This document shows, one piece after another, positions 7,716 to 53,741 of a stretch of 64,000 nucleotides of DNA. Below the pieces are notes generated by a model, which saw nothing but the letters and a program-made list of their open reading frames with translations, was not told the origin of the DNA and ran no database searches. The DNA lies in the NCBI GenBank assembly GCA_038064975.1, contig JBBTRX010000006.1, forward strand, positions 10,994 to 74,993, in the 5' to 3' direction. The DNA comes from Patescibacteria group bacterium. GTDB taxonomy: Bacteria > Patescibacteriota > Minisyncoccia > UBA6257 > 1-14-0-10-40-38. The position numbers were made by a program, and so were the translations under genes. The number at the start of each line of letters is the position of its first letter. Position 1 is the first letter of the stretch.

Positions 7716-7786
7716 TTAAGAAAGTTGATGAGTGGACAGTTAATGAGTTGAACAGTCTACTCAAAAGGAAACGACACAAAACAAAA

Positions 7787-11854: not shown

Positions 11855-11886
11855 ACATTCCAACATTCTGCAGAATGTTGGAATGT
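11855..11886. repeat. Perfect 32-bp palindrome ACATTCCAACATTCTGCAGAATGTTGGAATGT (copy 1)
   Basis: Self-complementary with a central CTGCAG. The same sequence recurs at 13749-13780. Confidence 0.9.
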
Positions 11887-12016
11887 TGTAGTTATCAAAG
11901 TGAGTATAGGAAGTATTGTAATTTATATGCATATATGATATAATAAAGGAAGTTTCCAGCTTGGAAACCCGTTCTCCCGACGGTATTGGGAAAAGCACTT
12001 TCACAAGGATACTGCT

Positions 12017-13745: not shown

Positions 13746-13783
13746 CAACATTCCAACATTCTGCAGAATGTTGGAATGTTGTA
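13746..13783. repeat. Perfect 38-bp palindrome (copy 2; contains the same 32-bp core as 11855-11886)
   Basis: ACAACATTCCAACATTCTGCAGAATGTTGGAATGTTGT, immediately after the sortase stop codon. Confidence 0.9.
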
Positions 13784-13878
13784 ATTACTTGATTAGAAAA
13801 TCCAATTGATCTTCTGGGACTCCGATTGACTTGCCGTGCTTGGCGACGGAGAATAAAAATCTCTAATGTTTCTTGGTT

Positions 13879-17804: not shown

Positions 17805-17866
17805 TAACTGATTAACTCATTATCTGCTTTTAACTGTTCAACTCATCAACTGTCCACTCATTAACC
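17805..17866. repeat. Intergenic repeat family 1 (iterated YAACTNAT units ...TCAACTGTCCACTCATTAAC)
   Basis: Shares the core AACTGTCCACTCAT(C/T)AAC with copies at 7722-7762, 24804-24845 and 31315-31350. Confidence 0.7.
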
Positions 17867-17901
17867 TCCCCAAATGCTTCGCGTGTAGTATACTTAAACT
17901 T

Positions 17902-18369
17902 ATGAGGAAAAACAAACCGATTCTTGTTTGGATTTTTCTTGTTGTTATCCTCGGCGTTGTTGTATTTTTCGCGTGGAAATTGATAAGTCCAAATCAGCGG
18001 AACGTTGCCGCATGGAAAAATGCAGACGTACGCTGCCTTTCAAATCGCGAACCGGTAAGCGGAGGGGATTATTCTGTACTACAAATTCTGGTGGACGGCT
18101 CACCAGAAGCTATTCCGGAACAAATCGGTGTAGCAAAGCGTTGCATGGCGGAACTTTATACGTCGGATATATCGGGAACAATCTATATTGATCCTGCGAC
18201 TCCGGAGAAAACATTTACGCTTGGTCAATTTTTTAAAATTTGGAGAGAGCCGATGGAACGCGAGGGATATAAAATGCATATGACGGTAAACGGACTTCCT
18301 AATACACAATTTGAAAATCTAGTTTTAGAAGACAAACAGCTTATTATTCTGGAATATGACCGAAAATAA
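17902..18369 (+). CDS. Membrane-anchored hypothetical protein at the head of the pilus locus
   Basis: N-terminal TM helix plus ~125-aa extracytoplasmic domain. Overlaps pilB by 14 nt (operon). Confidence 0.45.
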   Translation: MRKNKPILVWIFLVVILGVVVFFAWKLISPNQRNVAAWKNADVRCLSNREPVSGGDYSVLQILVDGSPEAIPEQIGVAKRCMAELYTSDISGTIYIDPATPEKTFTLGQFFKIWREPMEREGYKMHMTVNGLPNTQFENLVLEDKQLIILEYDRK

Positions 18370-19651
18370 TAATCAAAATACGGGGCAGCAGGCAGCGCCG
18401 AACGCGGAAGCTGAAAGCAGTCATCGGCATACGGAGAGTATTGAAGAGATGAAACAGCAATTGGAAGGGAATCCAAACCAGATTTCCGTCATTAAGCTTG
18501 TGGACGCGATTGTTGTTGCAGCTTTTGAAGCTCGTGCTTCGGATATCCACGTTGATCCGGAGGGGGATAAAATCCGCATCCGGTTCAGAATTGACGGCGT
18601 TCTTCACGACAATTTTTCTCTGCCAAAAAATCTGCAATCGGAACTTGTAACGCGCATTAAAATTCTTGCCGGCCTTCGCACGGACGAACATCAAGCCGCG
18701 CAAGACGGAAGGTTTAAGATGCAAGTTCCGGGCCACGACCACTTAGACGTCCGTGTTTCCATCGCGCCCACATACTATGGAGAAAACTGCGTGATGCGCT
18801 TGCTTGCAGAGCAGTCACAGGGGCTTTCGCTGGAATCTCTCGGATATTCTGTAAAAAATCTTGAAATTTTAAACAGCTCGATGCGCCGCCCGTACGGCAT
18901 GATCTTGGCAACGGGACCAACCGGTTCCGGAAAAACGACATCGCTCTATGCGGTGCTTAAAAAATTAAACATCCCGGACGTATCTATCATTACGATTGAA
19001 GACCCAATTGAATACTCCATCGGCGGCATTGACCAAGTGCAGGTGAATACGAGAACCGGACTTACGTTCTCAGACGGACTGCGCTTTATCTTGCGTCAAG
19101 ATCCGAACATTATCATGGTCGGCGAAATTAGAGACGACGACACGGCAAAAATCGCAGTTAACGCCGCGATGACGGGGCACTTAGTGCTCTCCACGCTCCA
19201 CACAAATGACTCTGCGACGACTCTTCCTCGGCTTTTAGACATGGGAGTAGAGCCCTTCCTAATTGCTTCCACAATCAATATTGCGATCGGCCAACGCTTG
19301 GTACGCAAAGTGTGTAATGATTGTAGGGCAGAACGGCAGTTAAAACCGGAAGAGATTGTATCGCTTAAAGGCACGGTGCCGGATAAATATTTAAATCGCG
19401 ACCAGACATTTGTGGTCGGAGTAGGGTGCAAGAAATGTGAAGGAACTGGCTACAAAGGCAGAATCGGTATCCATGAAGTCCTTCAAATTACGGAACCGAT
19501 CCGCAAACTTATTATGCAGAGGGCAACCGCGGCGGAGATTCGGAGAGCCGCAATCGCGGAAGGGATGGTACCCATGTTGGAAGACGGTATTGAAAAAGCG
19601 ATGAGCGGAGTAACTACAATAGAAGAAGTCTTACGTGTATTCCATGAATAA
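18356..19651 (+). CDS. pilB: Type IV pilus assembly ATPase PilB/GspE family (short form lacking N-terminal domains)
   Basis: Walker A (ATGPTGSGKTTSLYA), Asp box, Walker B/His box (VLSTLHTND) and the tetracysteine motif CNDC...CKKCEG specific to PilB/GspE rather than PilT. Confidence 0.85.
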   Translation: MTENNNQNTGQQAAPNAEAESSHRHTESIEEMKQQLEGNPNQISVIKLVDAIVVAAFEARASDIHVDPEGDKIRIRFRIDGVLHDNFSLPKNLQSELVTRIKILAGLRTDEHQAAQDGRFKMQVPGHDHLDVRVSIAPTYYGENCVMRLLAEQSQGLSLESLGYSVKNLEILNSSMRRPYGMILATGPTGSGKTTSLYAVLKKLNIPDVSIITIEDPIEYSIGGIDQVQVNTRTGLTFSDGLRFILRQDPNIIMVGEIRDDDTAKIAVNAAMTGHLVLSTLHTNDSATTLPRLLDMGVEPFLIASTINIAIGQRLVRKVCNDCRAERQLKPEEIVSLKGTVPDKYLNRDQTFVVGVGCKKCEGTGYKGRIGIHEVLQITEPIRKLIMQRATAAEIRRAAIAEGMVPMLEDGIEKAMSGVTTIEEVLRVFHE

Positions 19652-20851: not shown

Positions 20852-22651
20852 ATGCGCTTTTCATTTTTGAAACAAAAGCGTGGCGTTACATTGCTTGAAA
20901 CGCTCATTAGCATAACGATACTTTTGATTATCGCTGTTAGCGTGTATCGCGGATTTTCCGCGCTCTTAGATATTCTCGGAGCATCACGTACGCGTATCGC
21001 GGCTGCTCAAGTTGCGAATGAGCAAATAGAAATTATTCGTAATCTTCCGTACGCAAGTGTAGGTACGGTGGGAGGCGCGCCGACAGGAGTTATTACAGCG
21101 CTGGTTACAAAAGAAAAAGGAGGGCTTACGTTTACAATAGAAACAACTATTCGCAATGTGGACGATCCGTTTGACGGATTGCTCGGCGGCTCGCCAAACG
21201 ATCTTTCTCCTGCGGATTACAAACTAATTGAATTAAATATCACATGCGTGTTGTGTGATGACCCCACGACGTTTACATTTACAGGAAGAGCGGCTCCTAA
21301 AGGATTAGAGACGGCAAGCACGAATGGAGCGTTATTCGTTCAAGTAGTGGACGCTAATGGGCAAGCAGTTTCGGGGGCGACTGTTACTATCACAAATACA
21401 ACAGTAGTTCCTAACATCAATATTACTGACGTTACAGATGCAAGCGGATTTTTAAAAATTATTGATGCTCCGCCGGCAGTCCAGTCGTATCGTATTACAG
21501 TAAGCAAATCAGGATATTCTTCGGATCAGACCTACACATCAAGCGTAGCAAATCCTAACCCTACAAAGCCCCATGTTACGGTTGCCATACAGACGGTGAC
21601 TCAAGCGACATTCTCTATAGACCGCGTGAGTACAATTAATGCTTCCAGTCTTACACAAACCTGCGGAGGAGTCGGGAGTTTTGATTTTAGAGTAACGGGG
21701 AGCAAACTTATCGGCACCGCTCCCGATGTTCCAAAATTTAATCAAACGGTTATGACGAACAGTTCAGGACTACTTACATTAAATACTATAGAGTGGGGCA
21801 ATTACGTTATGGATTTCACTCTGGATTCTAATTTAGATGTGTTAGGTACCATCCCGGGGCTTCCGCTTACCGTAAACCCAAATAGTACGCAAGATTTTAA
21901 AATTATTACGGGACCGAAAAATCCACGCGCGCTCGTCGTTACGGTCCGCGACGCGACGAATTCCCAGCCGCTTGCGAACGCAAGCGTAGTTATTGATTCG
22001 GGGCCCTACAGTGCGATAAAGACGACAGGTAAGGGATCTCTCACACAAACGGATTGGTCCGGCGGAGACGGACAATTAGTTTTTGGAAGCGATACGCAAT
22101 ATTTCAGCCAGGACGGAAATATTGTAACCAATAATCCTGTAGGGGACATAACGCTCGCGGAAACGGAGCCGTCCGTATACGCTGCTTCAGGAAACCTTAC
22201 TTCGTCTCTCTTTGATACAGGTTCGCCCAGCAACTTTTTTCATCTCACATGGGAGCCGATAAGCCAACCTGCTGAAACTAACGTGAAATTTCAAATCGCG
22301 AGTGCGACTACGACAACACCATTTGAATGGACGTATCTCGGTCCTGATGGTACGGAAGGCACCTATTACACAACGAGCGGTACTGCTATTGCCGCGGAGC
22401 ATAACGGCGACCAATATATTAGGTACCGTGCATTTTTGGAAACCGCGAGCACAACCTTTACTCCGTCCATTTCCGACGTGGGGATTACGTTCGCTTCCGA
22501 TTGCGTTCCTCCCGGCCAGGCATATTTTGGTGGGCTTGCAATTGATACCTATAATGTAGACGTTACTATTCCGGGCTTCGCTCCGGAAAGCCAGCTCATG
22601 ACAGTAAATAATGATTGGCAGGAATTAGAAGTAATGATGAATCCGCAATAA
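20852..22651 (+). CDS. Giant (599 aa) type IV pilin-like protein with prepilin N-terminal methylation motif
   Basis: KRG|VTLLETLISITILLIIAV is a class III signal (Gly, hydrophobic helix, Glu+5). Followed by ~560 aa of Thr/Ser/Asn-rich beta-type domains. Confidence 0.75.
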   Translation: MRFSFLKQKRGVTLLETLISITILLIIAVSVYRGFSALLDILGASRTRIAAAQVANEQIEIIRNLPYASVGTVGGAPTGVITALVTKEKGGLTFTIETTIRNVDDPFDGLLGGSPNDLSPADYKLIELNITCVLCDDPTTFTFTGRAAPKGLETASTNGALFVQVVDANGQAVSGATVTITNTTVVPNINITDVTDASGFLKIIDAPPAVQSYRITVSKSGYSSDQTYTSSVANPNPTKPHVTVAIQTVTQATFSIDRVSTINASSLTQTCGGVGSFDFRVTGSKLIGTAPDVPKFNQTVMTNSSGLLTLNTIEWGNYVMDFTLDSNLDVLGTIPGLPLTVNPNSTQDFKIITGPKNPRALVVTVRDATNSQPLANASVVIDSGPYSAIKTTGKGSLTQTDWSGGDGQLVFGSDTQYFSQDGNIVTNNPVGDITLAETEPSVYAASGNLTSSLFDTGSPSNFFHLTWEPISQPAETNVKFQIASATTTTPFEWTYLGPDGTEGTYYTTSGTAIAAEHNGDQYIRYRAFLETASTTFTPSISDVGITFASDCVPPGQAYFGGLAIDTYNVDVTIPGFAPESQLMTVNNDWQELEVMMNPQ

Positions 22652-22656
22652 ATGAT

Positions 22657-23328
22657 ATGAAGAAAAAAATATATAATGTTCGTCGCGTTTTGCTAAACCA
22701 CGACATCTTCGTCGCTCTTCGCTCCTCGAAAGGTTTTACGCTGATTGAGTTTTTGATTACATTTGCCGTCATTCTTGCGGTTGGTGGCGGCATTGTCGTA
22801 TTCCAGAGGGATTTATTTGTATTCAATTCATACATTGGAAAATCTCTTTCCATCGGACGGGATGCGGAGCGGGTGGTGCGTGATATCGTGAGAGAAGTTC
22901 GATCTGCTTCCCAATCTAGTATTGGGGCATATCCGATAGAAATTGCGAAAGACAATGAGTTTATTTTCTTTGCCAATATTGATAAAGGGGCAGAGCGCGA
23001 GAGAATTCATTACTATCTTTCCGGCGATGAACTAAAAAGGAGTATTATTTACCCCACCGGTCAGCCGCTTACTTACAGTACAACGACAGGAGCGCAGGAA
23101 AGTGTGCGGACGGTGCTTAGGAATATCATCTCAACTACCACTCCTATTTTTACGTACTATAATAATACCTATGCGGGTACGACGACACCGCTTACCCAAC
23201 CCGTTCCGGTATTAAACATTCGTGTCGTAGGTATCATGATTACTGTTGACGAAGTATTAAATCAACTTCCTCCTCCACTCTCATTTTCCAGTAAAGTTAC
23301 TATTAGAAATTTGAGAGATAATCCGTAA
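22657..23328 (+). CDS. Type IV pilin-like protein with unusually long (about 29 aa) leader
   Basis: SSKG|FTLIEFLITFAVILAV prepilin motif. ATG at 22657 follows the upstream TAA by 5 nt. A shorter TTG-initiated leader is possible. Confidence 0.7.
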   Translation: MKKKIYNVRRVLLNHDIFVALRSSKGFTLIEFLITFAVILAVGGGIVVFQRDLFVFNSYIGKSLSIGRDAERVVRDIVREVRSASQSSIGAYPIEIAKDNEFIFFANIDKGAERERIHYYLSGDELKRSIIYPTGQPLTYSTTTGAQESVRTVLRNIISTTTPIFTYYNNTYAGTTTPLTQPVPVLNIRVVGIMITVDEVLNQLPPPLSFSSKVTIRNLRDNP

Positions 23329-24804: not shown

Positions 24805-24845
24805 TCAGTTAATCAGTGGACAGTTAATGAGTTGAACAGTTTAAG
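24804..24845. repeat. Intergenic repeat family 1 (inverted orientation)
   Basis: TCAGTTAATCAGTGGACAGTTAATGAGTTGAACAGTTTAAG is the reverse complement of the 17805-17866 core. Confidence 0.7.
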
Positions 24846-25797: not shown

Positions 25798-25800
25798 TTT

Positions 25801-25827
25801 TTCGCTTTATACTTTATTCCTTATACC
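25801..25827. repeat. Intergenic repeat family 2 (TTCGCTTTATACTTTATTCCTTATACC)
   Basis: Near-identical to 34212-34238 and 53703-53728. Confidence 0.7.
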
Positions 25828-25838
25828 TACTACTTTCC

Positions 25839-28676
25839 TTAATTCTTATAATACACTCGTTTCGTACTAAACTCTCGTGCGATGAAGAAGATTATCAAGA
25901 TAAGAAGAATGATGAGAAGAATCCATCCGAAGGGAATAGAGAGTCCAAAGATAGATGCAAGGAATCCTGAACCGCTGACCGTAAACGTGCGGTATGCGCT
26001 TGTGGATTGATCCTGATTGTTTGCGTCGCGATAATTCATAACAGCACCAGCAGTAAGCGTGTCGCCGGTTTCCATATTGTCTCTTACACGCAATGTAAGT
26101 CGTACGGAATTTTGATCCAGCGGATTAAGATTTCCAAGGTTAAAGGTTACAACGTTATTTGATTCAGAAGCTACCGAATTCGAAGATGAAATAAATTCCA
26201 ATCCATCGGAAAGCGTGATGCGGAGCATAAGACGAGATACCGCGTGACGATCACTGTCATTCCAATAGTTCAATGTGTAGATAATCGTTTCTCCCGGAGC
26301 CGGATTATTATTGTCAGCTGTTGGAGAAAGTACTATTGACGGAGAAATTTGAGAAACTGGAGTGGATGGTTTTGGAGGCGTTGTCGGTTGTGGCGGAACA
26401 AAGACGCTTCGCGTTTTAAAGCTCGTTATCGTTCCGTAGGATGTGCCAAAGTTATTTGTTGCGGTTACGCGATAATAGTAGGTAGTATTCGGCGAAAGGC
26501 TAGGAAGGAACCATGAGAAAGGAATTGATCCTTGTCCAAATCCAATATCGCGAGAAACAGTTGAATTGCCGAGCGATGGAGTCGTACCCCATTCAAAGCG
26601 TGCAGTCGTCTGCGATCCGCGAGGATCAACAGTGCTGTTTAACTGCGCGGAGATAGTTTCTACAAGTGAAGCGCCATTTGTGGAAACAAAGGGAATATTA
26701 CCCGATCCATTGAATCCCGATGAGGTATTAAATGAGAGGACAGAGCCGTATACGGTACCGAAACTATTCTGTGCAACAGCGCGGAAGTAGTACGTGGTAT
26801 TCTGTGAAAGATTAAAGAGGCTAGTGAAGTATGTTGAACCTCCAAATCCGCTTCCAATGAATTGCTGATTGGTTGTATTGCCGAGCGACTGCGAAGTGCC
26901 ATATTCAAACCATGCATTCATTTGCGATCCGTTCGGATTTGCGAATCCTTGAAGCGTTGCCGATGTTTGATTGATTGATGTTGCATTCAAGGTTGAAACA
27001 GTTGGGAAGTTGCCCTGCGAACCGCCGCTGCCAGATGTCGTAAATGAGAGGATACTGCCATAACTTGTGCTAAACGTGTTTTGTCCGACTGCACGGAAGT
27101 AGTAGGTAGTATTTGGAGCAAGATTTTGGATGGTGGATGAGAAATTCAAACTGGAATTTCCTGAACCGATACCCATGGATGCAGTTGAATTGCCGAGGAA
27201 TTGTGAAGTGCCGTATTCAAACCAGCCGCTCGTGAAAGCAGAGTTCGGATTTACGGATCCATGCAAGGTTGCGCTATTCGCACTAATATTGCTTGAAAAA
27301 ATCGTGTTCACAAATGGGCTGCCCGATCCGCCACCACCTCCGGTATTTCCACCTTGGGTAGTAAAGGAAAGAATGCTTCCAAATGTGGTCCCTGAAGAAT
27401 TCTGCGCGACAACGCGGAAGTAATAGGTAGTATTCTGTGAAAGATTAAAGAGTGAAGCACTTACATTAACGTTCCCATTTCCGTTGCCGACAGTCTGAGA
27501 ACCAACCGTGTTGCCAAGACTGAATGATGTGCCCCATTCAAATCGAACGTCAGTAAAGCCGCCATTTGGATTTACGGTACCGTTCAAAAGCGCACTGTTC
27601 TGTCCCACCCCGGAAGCGCTGTTCGTAGTTGCGGAAGGTGCCGATCCTGAAGATTGATTCGCCTGCGTAGTAAAGGAAAGGATGCTTCCTTGGGTTGTGC
27701 CGTAACTATTTGATCCGACGGCGCGGAAATAATAGGTCGTATTCGGAGAAAGATTTTGGATTGAGAACGAATAGTTTACGGATCCGTTGCCACTGCCTAC
27801 GTTTTGATTGCCTACGGTGTTGCCGAGCGACTGCGAAGTGCCATATTCAAACCATGCGTTGGTTGAGTTGCCGTTTGGATTTGCGGAACCCTGAAGTGTT
27901 GCGGATGTTTGTTCGATGCTATATGCAGAGAGGGTAGTAATGTTCGGTGCTGATCCGGACTGTCCTCCACCTTGAGTTGTAAAAGAAAGGATAGTTCCTT
28001 CACTTGCTCCAACATTAGACGCTCCGACCGCCCGGAAATAATACGTCGTGTTTGGGGAAAGATTATTAATAGATTTGGAAACGTTTACGAAGGAAGATCC
28101 GCTTCCTGCTGATTGCTGATTTGTTGCGTTTCCGAGTGATTGCGATGTACCCCACTCAAACCATACATCGGTATTTTTGCCTTCAGGGTTTACAGAAGCA
28201 TTTAAAGTTGCGGAAGTCTGACTTACATTAGTCGCTGGTTTTGTGATTACCGTTGGAAGGGAACCTGTAGGAGGATTGTCGGTCGTAGTGAAGCTGACTA
28301 TTGCTCCATAGCCGATGCCGAATGTATTTTTAGAAACTGCACGAACATAATAGGTAGTTCCCGCGGTAAGGCTTGATACTGATGCGGAAAAATCAGTACT
28401 TAACGATTTTGGATAACTTGTAATATTGTGTCCCGTTGAGAATGAATTAGAGGGCGTAAGGGAAGGGCTTGTGCCATATTCAAACCACGTAATGACATTT
28501 CCAGTAGAGGATTGCGTTTCGTGGCCAGAGAAAGTTGCGGATGTTTTGGTTACATTTTCAGCGGAAAATGTAGTGACGTCTGGTGCTGACGTTGCGGAAA
28601 CGGGGAACGCGAACGCAAGGGCTCCTATGAGTCCAAGTGCTATAAATACTGTATTTCTGGATAATTTTGCTGTCAT
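25839..28676 (-). CDS. Large secreted surface protein: signal peptide, about 8 tandem FN3-like repeats (~100 aa each), DUF11-like domain, conserved C-terminal GFLAS-TM-basic tail
   Basis: Repeats of ...WFEYGTSQSLGN...NLSPNTTYYFRAVG.N..G...GSILSFTTQ. C-terminus SGSGFLASIFGLSIP plus a 20-residue hydrophobic helix plus REFSTKR. The repeats are also visible as ~300-bp periodic near-identity at DNA level. Confidence 0.8.
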   Translation of the reverse strand: MTAKLSRNTVFIALGLIGALAFAFPVSATSAPDVTTFSAENVTKTSATFSGHETQSSTGNVITWFEYGTSPSLTPSNSFSTGHNITSYPKSLSTDFSASVSSLTAGTTYYVRAVSKNTFGIGYGAIVSFTTTDNPPTGSLPTVITKPATNVSQTSATLNASVNPEGKNTDVWFEWGTSQSLGNATNQQSAGSGSSFVNVSKSINNLSPNTTYYFRAVGASNVGASEGTILSFTTQGGGQSGSAPNITTLSAYSIEQTSATLQGSANPNGNSTNAWFEYGTSQSLGNTVGNQNVGSGNGSVNYSFSIQNLSPNTTYYFRAVGSNSYGTTQGSILSFTTQANQSSGSAPSATTNSASGVGQNSALLNGTVNPNGGFTDVRFEWGTSFSLGNTVGSQTVGNGNGNVNVSASLFNLSQNTTYYFRVVAQNSSGTTFGSILSFTTQGGNTGGGGGSGSPFVNTIFSSNISANSATLHGSVNPNSAFTSGWFEYGTSQFLGNSTASMGIGSGNSSLNFSSTIQNLAPNTTYYFRAVGQNTFSTSYGSILSFTTSGSGGSQGNFPTVSTLNATSINQTSATLQGFANPNGSQMNAWFEYGTSQSLGNTTNQQFIGSGFGGSTYFTSLFNLSQNTTYYFRAVAQNSFGTVYGSVLSFNTSSGFNGSGNIPFVSTNGASLVETISAQLNSTVDPRGSQTTARFEWGTTPSLGNSTVSRDIGFGQGSIPFSWFLPSLSPNTTYYYRVTATNNFGTSYGTITSFKTRSVFVPPQPTTPPKPSTPVSQISPSIVLSPTADNNNPAPGETIIYTLNYWNDSDRHAVSRLMLRITLSDGLEFISSSNSVASESNNVVTFNLGNLNPLDQNSVRLTLRVRDNMETGDTLTAGAVMNYRDANNQDQSTSAYRTFTVSGSGFLASIFGLSIPFGWILLIILLILIIFFIAREFSTKRVYYKN

Positions 28677-30611: not shown

Positions 30612-31172
30612 ATGAGTCAAAAGATAGATCGGATTGCGGTGAATGCAGCAATTGAGGTACTTATTTCTCAGAATGATGAAAATGGCGAAGCTGCCCGCAC
30701 CGTTATTGCTTATGGATCTGAATTGCAGCGATCAGGATTCGTGACATTTGAGAGTGTTAAGAGCACTAAATCATCGGGCAAGAAGATGTCTGGATATTCT
30801 CCAGGCCATGGAGATGTCCCAATTCAAGATCAGGAACGCAAAGAACGAAAAGAATGGCAGTTTGGTATTCACAAGGAAAGAATTGGATACTTCCGGCTTT
30901 GGAAGGAAGATGAGGGAGAGCTATGCTTCCATCATTTCTGGCAATCAAGTATTGCCACAAAATCCTGTGCTAATAGAGATCCTGATGTGTACGTTCTTGG
31001 ATATGAAACTACCTCCCTGCAAATGGAATATTTTGCTATTGAGCGCTTGAAAACCATATGGACTTTCAGTATTGGAAGGAGGACGTACACAGTTCAACTC
31101 CTTTATCTTGAAGAGATCTATGGCAAGTCGCCAAAAATTTGTGGGATAAGGATTCACTCAAACTCCTCCTAG
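30612..31172 (+). CDS. Hypothetical protein
   Basis: 186-aa ORF with an AGGAGG RBS. No recognisable motif. Confidence 0.4.
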   Translation: MSQKIDRIAVNAAIEVLISQNDENGEAARTVIAYGSELQRSGFVTFESVKSTKSSGKKMSGYSPGHGDVPIQDQERKERKEWQFGIHKERIGYFRLWKEDEGELCFHHFWQSSIATKSCANRDPDVYVLGYETTSLQMEYFAIERLKTIWTFSIGRRTYTVQLLYLEEIYGKSPKICGIRIHSNSS

Positions 31173-31239
31173 GGAAACATCTACCGCTTTCTTTCTTCTG
31201 AAAGGAGGCGGTCTTTTTTTAGACCGATACGAAGCAGAA

Positions 31240-31318
31240 TATGCAAATGATACGAAACAATAGGTTCGTCGCGTTTTACTAAACTACGACATCTTCGTCG
31301 CTCTTCACTCCTCGAACT
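31240..31318 (+). pseudogene. Truncated duplicate of the 5' end (start-codon region and leader-peptide codons) of the pilin gene at 22651-22730
   Basis: 52-nt stretch GTTCGTCGCGTTTTaCTAAACtACGACATCTTCGTCGCTCTTCaCTCCTCGAA differs from 22678-22730 at 3 positions. AATGATAcGAA upstream echoes AATGATAtGAA. The frame is closed by TAG upstream and TGA at the cleavage-site position. Confidence 0.45.
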
Positions 31319-31350
31319 GATCAACTGTCCACTCATCAACTTCTTTAACT
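31315..31350. repeat. Intergenic repeat family 1
   Basis: AACTGATCAACTGTCCACTCATCAACTTCTTTAACT, fused to the pilin 5' fragment. Confidence 0.7.
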
Positions 31351-32896
31351 AGTTGTTAGTCGTATCAAAAATACTTGTACTTCTGCCTTGGGGAGCTTGC
31401 GGAGCTTTTGGTTTGCGCCGTTCGTAAATTACGAACGAAAGGCCAAGAAGCGTTGCGAAGACAATTCCTCCTACAACAATGACTCGTTTTCTAGTAAAGG
31501 GATTCACTCCTCCTAGATCGCCAATTGTGAACGGAATCGGATCGCCAACGAGTTCGGGGACACCGTTTCGTATCGCATAAATTTTAACTAAATATTTTCC
31601 GTTGCCGAGGCGTTCCACAATAACCTGACGTGAAGCTGCATCTACAAAGAGACTTTTTTGAAGAATATTATTTTCGTCAAAAATATCAATTCGGTATCCG
31701 GTAATCCCATCGGTATTTTCCGGAGCTTCCCAGGAAATAGTAACCGTGCCGGTACCGTCCTCGTTGTCTTCGGTCGCAGCTGACTCTTCGCCAGATCCGG
31801 ATCCTGTAGGCGGTTCGTTATCTCCACCGGTTGGCGGAGGTTCGTTTCCGGAAGGAGGATTATTATTGTCTGGAGGAGGGGGTGGTGGCGGGGGAATAAA
31901 TGCACCACAGTTTGGATCTGTGAGATCAATCAGTCCATCACCATCATTATCTATATTGTCTGAGCAGAGAGCTTGCGTGTTTTCAACTCCTCCAGTTGGC
32001 GGAGGCGGAGGCGGAGGCGGAGGCGGCGGAGGCGGCGGTTCGTTGTCTCCACCGGTTGGCGGAGGAGTTCCGGACGAGGGGCTTTCAAATGTTCCTGAAA
32101 CATTTGTTTCGTTTCCCCAATTGTCTTTTGCAAATAGGATATAGGAATAGGTCTCATCAGGAATTACGGAGATCGTAAGTGTGCACGGAGTTTGTACGTA
32201 GGGGCAGACAGTGTAATTGCCGATGTACGCTGTACTTTGCGTTCCACTACCTTCCGGCCCGTACGTTACACGGTAATCCACAGGCTCATTCGCGGTAAAA
32301 GAAATTTTGACTGAATTCAATGAAAGTTCAGTTACCGTCGTCGTTCCAAGAATTGGGGGAGCGGTTTCATTTGTTTCATAGAGTCCATATTTAAACGCAA
32401 AACTTTGATCGTCTTGGCCTAAAAGCGCGGGCTCTACAGGGAAAAGAGTTGAAGCTCCTGCATTATGCGTAAGAATTTGGAATTGAGTTGAATAATGTAG
32501 TTGAAGATTCGGCATCGTCGTCACCATACGGATGCGATATTTTTTTGTGACGGTAATCGGAATTTGCGTGTCCAAATCTACATGGAATTTTGTTCCTCCA
32601 TATTTTTCCGCAATAGTAGGAATGGTAACTGTTTTTGAACTGAGGAGCGTATTTGCTTCGTCACGGATTCCAAATGTAGCAGTTCCGGATGATCCAGTAT
32701 TCGTGAGCCACACGTCAAAGCCGCTCAAAAAATCATTTGCTGCGTAGAATGGTTGGGCGGGCGTTTCTCCGAATGCGGCGAGCAGGCTTTCGTTGTCATC
32801 GGGAGCAAATTCAAAAAAGTTCGTGCCGTGCGCGAATGCAGTGCTTACGACAACAACTCCCAAAAAGATCGCGAGTAATCTATGGAGAAAGAGCAT
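31349..32896 (-). CDS. Secreted/anchored surface protein with poly-Pro linkers, Ca-binding-like DxDxDG loop and C-terminal TM anchor
   Basis: Signal peptide MLFLHRLLAIFLGVVVVSTAFA. PPPPPPPPPPPPPP and PPPPPPP runs. DNDGDGLIDLTD (EF-hand/dockerin-like). C-terminal hydrophobic helix plus ERRKPK. Confidence 0.6.
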   Translation of the reverse strand: MLFLHRLLAIFLGVVVVSTAFAHGTNFFEFAPDDNESLLAAFGETPAQPFYAANDFLSGFDVWLTNTGSSGTATFGIRDEANTLLSSKTVTIPTIAEKYGGTKFHVDLDTQIPITVTKKYRIRMVTTMPNLQLHYSTQFQILTHNAGASTLFPVEPALLGQDDQSFAFKYGLYETNETAPPILGTTTVTELSLNSVKISFTANEPVDYRVTYGPEGSGTQSTAYIGNYTVCPYVQTPCTLTISVIPDETYSYILFAKDNWGNETNVSGTFESPSSGTPPPTGGDNEPPPPPPPPPPPPPPTGGVENTQALCSDNIDNDGDGLIDLTDPNCGAFIPPPPPPPPDNNNPPSGNEPPPTGGDNEPPTGSGSGEESAATEDNEDGTGTVTISWEAPENTDGITGYRIDIFDENNILQKSLFVDAASRQVIVERLGNGKYLVKIYAIRNGVPELVGDPIPFTIGDLGGVNPFTRKRVIVVGGIVFATLLGLSFVIYERRKPKAPQAPQGRSTSIFDTTNN

Positions 32897-33845: not shown

Positions 33846-34211
33846 ATGTCAAAAATAATTAATTTCACTGATCTTATTGCATGGCAAGAGGCGCATAAAG
33901 TAGTTTTGTCGTTATATAAAGCTACGGAACAATTTCCTAATAAGGAAATATATGGACTTACTAGCCAAATGCGCCGCGCCGCTATTTCTCTGACAAGTAA
34001 TATTGCCGAAGGATTTTCTCGTAAATCTTCAAAAGAGAAAATACAATTTTATGCCATTACGTTGGGTTCAAATACCGAATTACAGAATCAACTTATGCTT
34101 GCTCGAGATCTGGGATATATTCCGCCGGAGCAGTTTCATTCTATATTTCAAGATATAATAAGAGTTCATAAACTAACTAATGGTCTTATTCGCGGTCTTC
34201 GGGAAGCATAA
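33846..34211 (+). CDS. Four-helix-bundle protein (23S rRNA intervening-sequence protein family)
   Basis: Characteristic 120-aa pattern IAWQ.A..L...IY..T..FP..E.Y.L..Q.RRAA.SI..NIAEGF, often found between def and fmt. Confidence 0.75.
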   Translation: MSKIINFTDLIAWQEAHKVVLSLYKATEQFPNKEIYGLTSQMRRAAISLTSNIAEGFSRKSSKEKIQFYAITLGSNTELQNQLMLARDLGYIPPEQFHSIFQDIIRVHKLTNGLIRGLREA

Positions 34212-34238
34212 TTCGCCTTATTCTTTATTCCTTATACC
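34212..34238. repeat. Intergenic repeat family 2 (TTCGCCTTATTCTTTATTCCTTATACC)
   Basis: Directly after the preceding stop codon. Also followed by TACCTACT as at 25828. Confidence 0.7.
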
Positions 34239-34250
34239 AAATACCTACTC

Positions 34251-53699: not shown

Positions 53700-53702
53700 C
53701 AA

Positions 53703-53728
53703 TTCGCCTTATACTTTATTCCTTATAC
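53703..53728. repeat. Intergenic repeat family 2 (TTCGCCTTATACTTTATTCCTTATAC)
   Basis: Near-identical to the 25801 and 34212 copies. Confidence 0.7.
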
Positions 53729-53741
53729 TAGATTCTACTTT

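Follow-up and report, generated by a model that had tools for sequence, protein, structure and literature searches.

The question raised by this locus is why the start of a type IV pilus gene recurs, as a short fragment without coding capacity, in the spacer between two convergent genes 8.6 kb downstream of the gene itself. The 64,000-nucleotide stretch analysed here, referred to as the window, is part of a 155-kb contig from the Hainich groundwater metagenome (ENA ERZ1292623). Within it, positions 22678-22730 (in copy A) and 31264-31316 (in copy B), both on the plus strand, are identical at 50 of 53 positions (94%), and the three differences between them are transitions only. The original prediction had described a 52-nt match with three mismatches at 31264-31315, one base short of the 53 nt found, and had taken an identity under 80% as grounds against a duplication; the core was measured well above that level. 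In a mismatch-tolerant search the 53-mer gave no chance match in 100 shuffles and exactly two copies in the window, and a repeat finder likewise returned a two-copy family of 94% identity.

The homology extends beyond this core. A gapped local alignment widens it to 22650-22730 (81 nt) in copy A and 31245-31316 (72 nt) in copy B, taking in the start-codon context, where the ATG of the gene is matched by ACG in copy B. The aligned parts are a 12-nt echo of the start context (AAATGATATGAA in A and AAATGATACGAA in B), an A/T-rich tract with a net 9-nt deletion in B, and the 53-mer. The echo, predicted as AAATGATA[T/C]GAA, is present and becomes colinear with the core once the net deletion is allowed for; considered alone it is modestly significant (p ~0.014 against random 40-mers of the window and ~0.05 against shuffles). 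The longest perfect identity between the two copies is 21 nt. When core, echo and tract are aligned manually, about 5 transitions are counted over about 70 aligned bases, along with the indels, for a divergence of ~6-7%, and the differences are distributed fairly evenly over the homology. Both copies point the same way, as direct repeats, and bracket an interval of 8,586 bp. Copy B is not an assembly artefact, since a 271-nt region containing it is identical in two independent Logan assemblies of the same strain, ERR3858113 and SRR32696702.

Copy A, the presumed source, occupies positions 22650-22730 of the plus strand, as defined by the gapped local alignment and backed by the N_methyl match and the gene junctions of relatives. 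It consists of the last base of the upstream stop codon, a 5-nt junction, the ATG at 22657 and leader codons 1-25. The gene that it opens (22657-23328, plus strand) encodes a prepilin-type minor pilin of 223 aa, whose N-terminus reads MKKKIYNVRRVLLNHDIFVALRSSKG followed by FTLIEF and whose Pfam N_methyl motif falls at residues 22-46. The gene occupies fourth place in a Patescibacteria type IV pilus (T4P) operon, where it is preceded by a T2SSE-family (PilB-like) ATPase starting at 18356, a T2SSF (PilC-type) protein starting at 19635 and, immediately before it, a 599-aa pilin starting at 20852, and is followed by a 488-aa protein. Other Patescibacteria have a conserved three-gene module of ~600, 210 and 465 aa; the small pilin of these relatives starts 1-9 nt past the large pilin gene, and the tight junction is the native arrangement.

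The leaders of the orthologues range from ~3 to ~49 residues and are not alignable, so the 25-residue leader of the 223-aa prepilin is not exceptional. No other protein or paralogue with this leader was found when a collection of 5.8 billion sequences was searched with the full-length pilin. Orthologous minor pilins from other metagenomes (P0018, P0007 and P0026) have leaders in which the prepilin cleavage motif is duplicated internally, GFTHAPSGAGFTHAPSGAGFTLIE being one of them, which suggests that small duplications arise easily in the leader and cleavage-site region of this pilin family. A sigma-70-like consensus match runs antisense inside copy A (22668-22696, minus strand), with TTAGCA and TATATT separated by a 17-nt spacer and 9 of 12 consensus positions matched. 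It is probably due to chance; its -10 part lies within the tract that is deleted in copy B.

Copy B (31245-31316, plus strand) is a partial duplicate that has lost its coding capacity. Its start codon is changed from ATG to ACG, and the net 9-nt deletion brings a TAG, in frame, right up against the 53-nt core. Translated in the pilin frame, the copy gives VRRVLLNYDIFVALHSSN and is then closed by TGA after codon 18; it contains no mature pilin sequence, and its homology to copy A stops 4 nt before the codon of the prepilin cleavage site. This translation, the TAG immediately before VRRVLLNYDIFVALHSSN and the consequent reading of the copy as non-coding had been predicted and hold, and the overall description of a truncated, non-coding duplicate of the pilin start and leader is correct.

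The fragment lies inside a 176-nt spacer. The left border of this spacer is a 186-aa gene (30612-31172, plus strand), which ends 73 nt upstream of copy B and has an intrinsic terminator at 31183-31220 on the same strand, composed of a 13-pair stem (31183-31212) followed by CTTTTTTT. Plus-strand transcripts are therefore expected to end ahead of copy B, and no promoter-like site faces the copy on that strand; its transcription in the sense direction is unlikely. From the other side, the spacer is entered by a convergent gene (31349-32896, minus strand) for a 515-aa protein with a signal peptide, an Fn3 domain, a proline-rich region and a C-terminal TM anchor. No terminator-like site was called on the minus strand between the stop of this gene at 31349 and copy B, and only for the plus strand does the shared hairpin carry a U-tail. 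The antisense of copy B therefore probably forms part of the 3' UTR of the 515-aa gene.

At its right-hand end, copy B is fused to an intergenic repeat, 'family-1', just as had been proposed. The repeat copy at this site (31315-31343, minus strand; GAAGTTGATGAGTGGACAGTTGATCAGTT on that strand) begins 5 nt past the stop of the 515-aa gene, to which it is assigned. At the junction with copy B it is without the distal GAACAGTNTA (~10 nt) found in the other copies of the repeat, so that a break point links copy B to the repeat. 'Family-1' repeats are ~34 nt long, with the consensus AGTTGATGAGTGGACAGTTAATGAGTTGAACAGT and two similar halves of ~16 nt, and the window holds four of them: 7723-7759 and 24807-24843 on the plus strand, 31315-31343 and 17840-17868 on the minus strand. 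Read in the direction of transcription, three of the four begin 2-7 nt past a stop codon, and each of the two plus-strand copies has a hairpin after it. The fourth is found on the minus strand, ~90 nt upstream of tRNA-Gln. The repeat is possibly a 3'-end motif or a protein-binding motif.

How often such a fragment recurs bears on what it is. The window and its 9-kb upstream flank (73 kb in all, from a genome presumably near 1 Mb) contain no third copy at either the DNA or the peptide level (blastn-short and tblastn), and the same searches gave nothing beyond A and B in the other loci retrieved. A 21-mer search of GTDB representative genomes returned only three chance matches, in Paraburkholderia and Sphingopyxis, and neither a 31-mer search of JGI metagenomes nor a two-pattern search of IMG/VR gave a further copy. 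The original prediction had asked whether more copies exist and had allowed that the match might be part of a generic intergenic repeat. None turned up in the 73 kb, the GTDB representatives, the JGI metagenomes or IMG/VR, and that option loses its footing, as no additional copies of the 53-mer were found. The pilin loci of relatives agree with this. Eight orthologous loci of other Patescibacteria, on at least four distinct contigs, have no duplicate of the pilin 5' end up to 10 kb on each side, as judged by a procedure that recovers copy B when run on the window. They were drawn from five distant loci of a profile scan of JGI metagenomes and from three look-ups, and the identity of their pilins is at most 52%.

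Nor does the shared sequence behave as a structured RNA. Neither strand of A or B folds better than its shuffles (z -0.8 to +1.7), and Rfam gives nothing at gathering thresholds, with only chance-level matches at E up to 10. A conserved 5' regulatory or leader RNA reused elsewhere, which had also been put forward, thus finds no fold signal, no Rfam match and no further copies in the collections searched, and copy B stands behind a terminator with no promoter-like site facing it on the plus strand. The class of structured cis-regulatory or leader RNAs was rejected on these z values and the lack of an Rfam match.

The most satisfactory account of these features, and one that we regard as moderately probable, sees in copy B a stub without function, the remnant of an event that partially duplicated or rearranged the pilin 5' end. 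A short piece of the pilus operon, comprising the junction between the 599-aa gene and the pilin gene together with the start codon and leader codons of the pilin, would have reached its place 8.6 kb downstream by duplication, or would have remained there after a rearrangement or deletion. At its right-hand break point, which falls 4 nt before the cleavage-site codon, it would have been joined to the truncated 'family-1' repeat of the convergent gene. The fragment may have arisen as a short-patch copy, or as a larger duplicate that deletions then shortened, in which case the deletion on the right would end in the 'family-1' repeat. It would then have decayed as neutral DNA, its start codon turning into ACG, its A-rich tract losing a net 9 nt, an in-frame TAG appearing and a few transitions accumulating. 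The direction of copying, like the mechanism and the lack of function, is inferred: copy B carries the native gene junction of the operon, and this favours an origin of B from A over the opposite course. Transitions, together with indels in a low-complexity A/T tract, spread fairly evenly over the homology, are as expected for unconstrained decay. Among the origins suggested in the original prediction, a recombination footprint is therefore the best-supported reading, while a silent partial cassette is not borne out: the copy holds the leader only, without a mature or variable pilin part, it is single, and neither a recombinase nor a variant arrangement was found.

Three observations sit less easily with a relic. 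The genomes of CPR bacteria are streamlined, and a useless relic of 72 nt is somewhat unexpected in one of them. An identity of 94% means that copy B is either recent or constrained. Finally, both ends of the homology fall near functional boundaries, namely the gene junction on one side and the junction of leader and mature pilin on the other, which would be a mild coincidence for random breaks. One alternative would make the 53-mer a dispersed short repeat or miniature mobile element that sits in-frame in the pilin leader, as MKKKIYN-[17 aa]-KGFTLIE, and once more in the spacer. Deleting the 17 codons does restore a textbook short prepilin leader, leader length varies widely in this pilin family, and other short intergenic repeat families occur in the genome. 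However, just two copies exist in 73 kb and none was found elsewhere in the collections searched, the sequence has neither terminal inverted repeats nor a hairpin, and the homology runs upstream into the start-codon context, which is not expected of an inserted element; this alternative is improbable. We give still less credence to the idea that A and B are recombination sites, either att-like or substrates of deletion or phase variation, which would allow excision of the 8,586-bp segment, with the pilin body and five genes, or would reflect its insertion as a unit. The copies are indeed direct repeats in the same orientation around a block of lineage-specific surface genes and unknown genes, but Pfam annotation of the window and the 9-kb flank reveals no integrase, invertase, transposase or reverse transcriptase (the sole RVT_3 match is an RNase H-type protein), perfect identity reaches at most 21 nt, and GC content runs through the 8.6-kb interval without a clear break. 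Moreover, every independent contig with flanking genes, reached through the pilin, the 599-aa pilin or the 186-aa gene, has one and the same arrangement at the assembly level, IMG/VR holds no attP-like match, and excision would destroy the pilin gene. For the 515-aa product, a look-up returned no record. Both of these alternatives are less likely than a relic. The att-site and shufflon readings were rejected for want of a cognate recombinase and of an alternative arrangement among the contigs. A template and variable repeat (TR/VR) pair of a diversity-generating retroelement was dismissed as well: there is no reverse transcriptase, one of the three mismatches is T/C, only two of the ten adenines differ, and the repeat is located at the 5' leader and not at the 3' end of a gene.

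The remaining alternative gives copy B a task. As a trans-acting antisense element, the minus-strand 3' UTR of the 515-aa surface-protein gene would base-pair with the start codon and leader of the pilin mRNA, so that production of the surface protein would lead to repression or destabilisation of the minor-pilin message. This is unlikely, if less so than either of the alternatives above. The absence of a terminator-like site between the 515-aa stop and copy B on the minus strand is in its favour, and the duplex predicted with pilin mRNA 22633-22755, which includes the AUG, reaches -123 kcal/mol against -45 +/- 5 for shuffles. An energy of this size, however, follows trivially from any duplicate of 94% identity. 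By a hand count, three of the four substitutions in core and echo would be G-U wobbles, a proportion that is not significant (p ~0.3), and self-folding of the minus-strand region is, if anything, weaker than in shuffles (z +1.7). The eight pilin loci of relatives contain no analogous copy, and no sRNA family matches. A combined history, in which the stub was later co-opted as a ~70-nt trans-antisense segment within the 3' UTR of the 515-aa Fn3 mRNA and would occlude the start codon and leader of the minor pilin, is likewise unlikely.

What the locus means depends on which of these holds. To our knowledge, almost nothing is known about RNA-level regulation in Patescibacteria. If copy B did act as antisense, an adhesin-like surface protein would be inversely coupled to the synthesis of a minor pilin in an ultrasmall episymbiont. 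This would raise the importance of the locus, since pili serve host attachment and RNA-level regulation is so little known in this group; type IV pili are presented as central to host attachment in cultivated Patescibacteria by one study (PMC11623550). If copy B is only a relic, it matters little, marking a past rearrangement beside the T4P operon of a groundwater member of the Patescibacteria and indicating that even streamlined genomes keep short gene-start fragments.

The window contains further repeats and irregularities. Two 40-nt repeats, at 11855-11894 and 13748-13787, are 98% identical, contain the palindrome ACATTCCAACATTCTGCAGAATGTTGGAATGT and flank a 1.9-kb segment with a 265-aa ORF that has no Pfam match and a sortase gene. 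A 33-nt AT-rich repeat, AATTCGCCTTATWCTTTATTCCTTATAC, occurs at 25799-25831, 34210-34242 and 53701-53733; the middle one comes immediately after a 23S-rRNA-intervening-sequence/bAvd-like four-helix-bundle gene (33846-34211), itself situated between def and fmt. A 945-aa surface protein (25839-28676, minus strand) contains six tandem repeats of ~312 nt, which resemble Fn3 and purple-acid-phosphatase-N domains and share 60-82% DNA identity; these repeats are probably the reason why one Logan contig (L005) ends inside the gene. Three independent Logan assemblies (L010-L012) end at the same point, ~63760, which falls within a P-type ATPase-like gene cut off by the right end of the window. The block of a CtpB-like S41 protease and ribosomal protein L9 (35742-37461) is oriented, with respect to the T4P operon, opposite to its counterpart in a distant relative (L022, 14885-16696). 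In that same relative, pilM and pilO come after the 468-aa gene, and no PilM or PilO Pfam domain was detected among the window proteins scanned. This neighbourhood has been rearranged between lineages.

A comparison of copy B with known arrangements of pilin genes and intergenic repeats helps to place it. In Neisseria, the pilS loci are silent cassettes that supply antigenic variation by gene conversion; they are present in several copies and carry the variable 3' part of the pilin without the 5' leader or constant region. Copy B is similar in being a promoterless partial pilin copy kilobases away from an expressed pilin gene, yet its content is the reverse of pilS, for it has the leader only, no mature pilin, and is single in the 73 kb searched. 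A pilS-type silent cassette was discarded, since copy B has neither a variable mature region nor, in those 73 kb, companion cassettes. Pilin switching of the Moraxella Piv or shufflon type proceeds by site-specific inversion and uses inverted repeats together with a dedicated recombinase. The break point of copy B near the conserved pilin N-terminus recalls these systems, but repeats A and B are direct and no recombinase gene was found in the window or its flank. The class of dispersed intergenic repeats and MITEs was set aside too, as 73 kb hold just these two copies, GTDB representatives, JGI metagenomes and IMG/VR gave no match, and the sequence forms no hairpin.

Antisense sRNAs that derive from 3' UTRs or are encoded in trans typically pair with their targets through a short seed. 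The potential for long complementarity to the translation-initiation region of a target, located at the 3' end of another mRNA, is what copy B would have in common with them. Its predicted complementarity to copy A is far longer than seed pairing, however, and is a simple result of duplication.

The closest parallel is found in the gene-fragment pseudogenes of reduced bacterial genomes. Copy B shares with them its partial homology to a functional gene, its lost start codon, its closure by stop codons, the lack of a promoter and its single occurrence; in the eight orthologous loci of distant relatives (pilin identity at most 52%) no such copy was seen up to 10 kb on each side. It departs from them in that it keeps only the junction, start and leader (~80 nt), ends near functional boundaries and adjoins a local repeat. 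Despite these peculiarities, copy B has two marks of a pseudogene, namely significant homology to a gene of the same genome and the loss of its coding capacity. It is most likely a mundane element that belongs to the ordinary category of gene-fragment pseudogenes.
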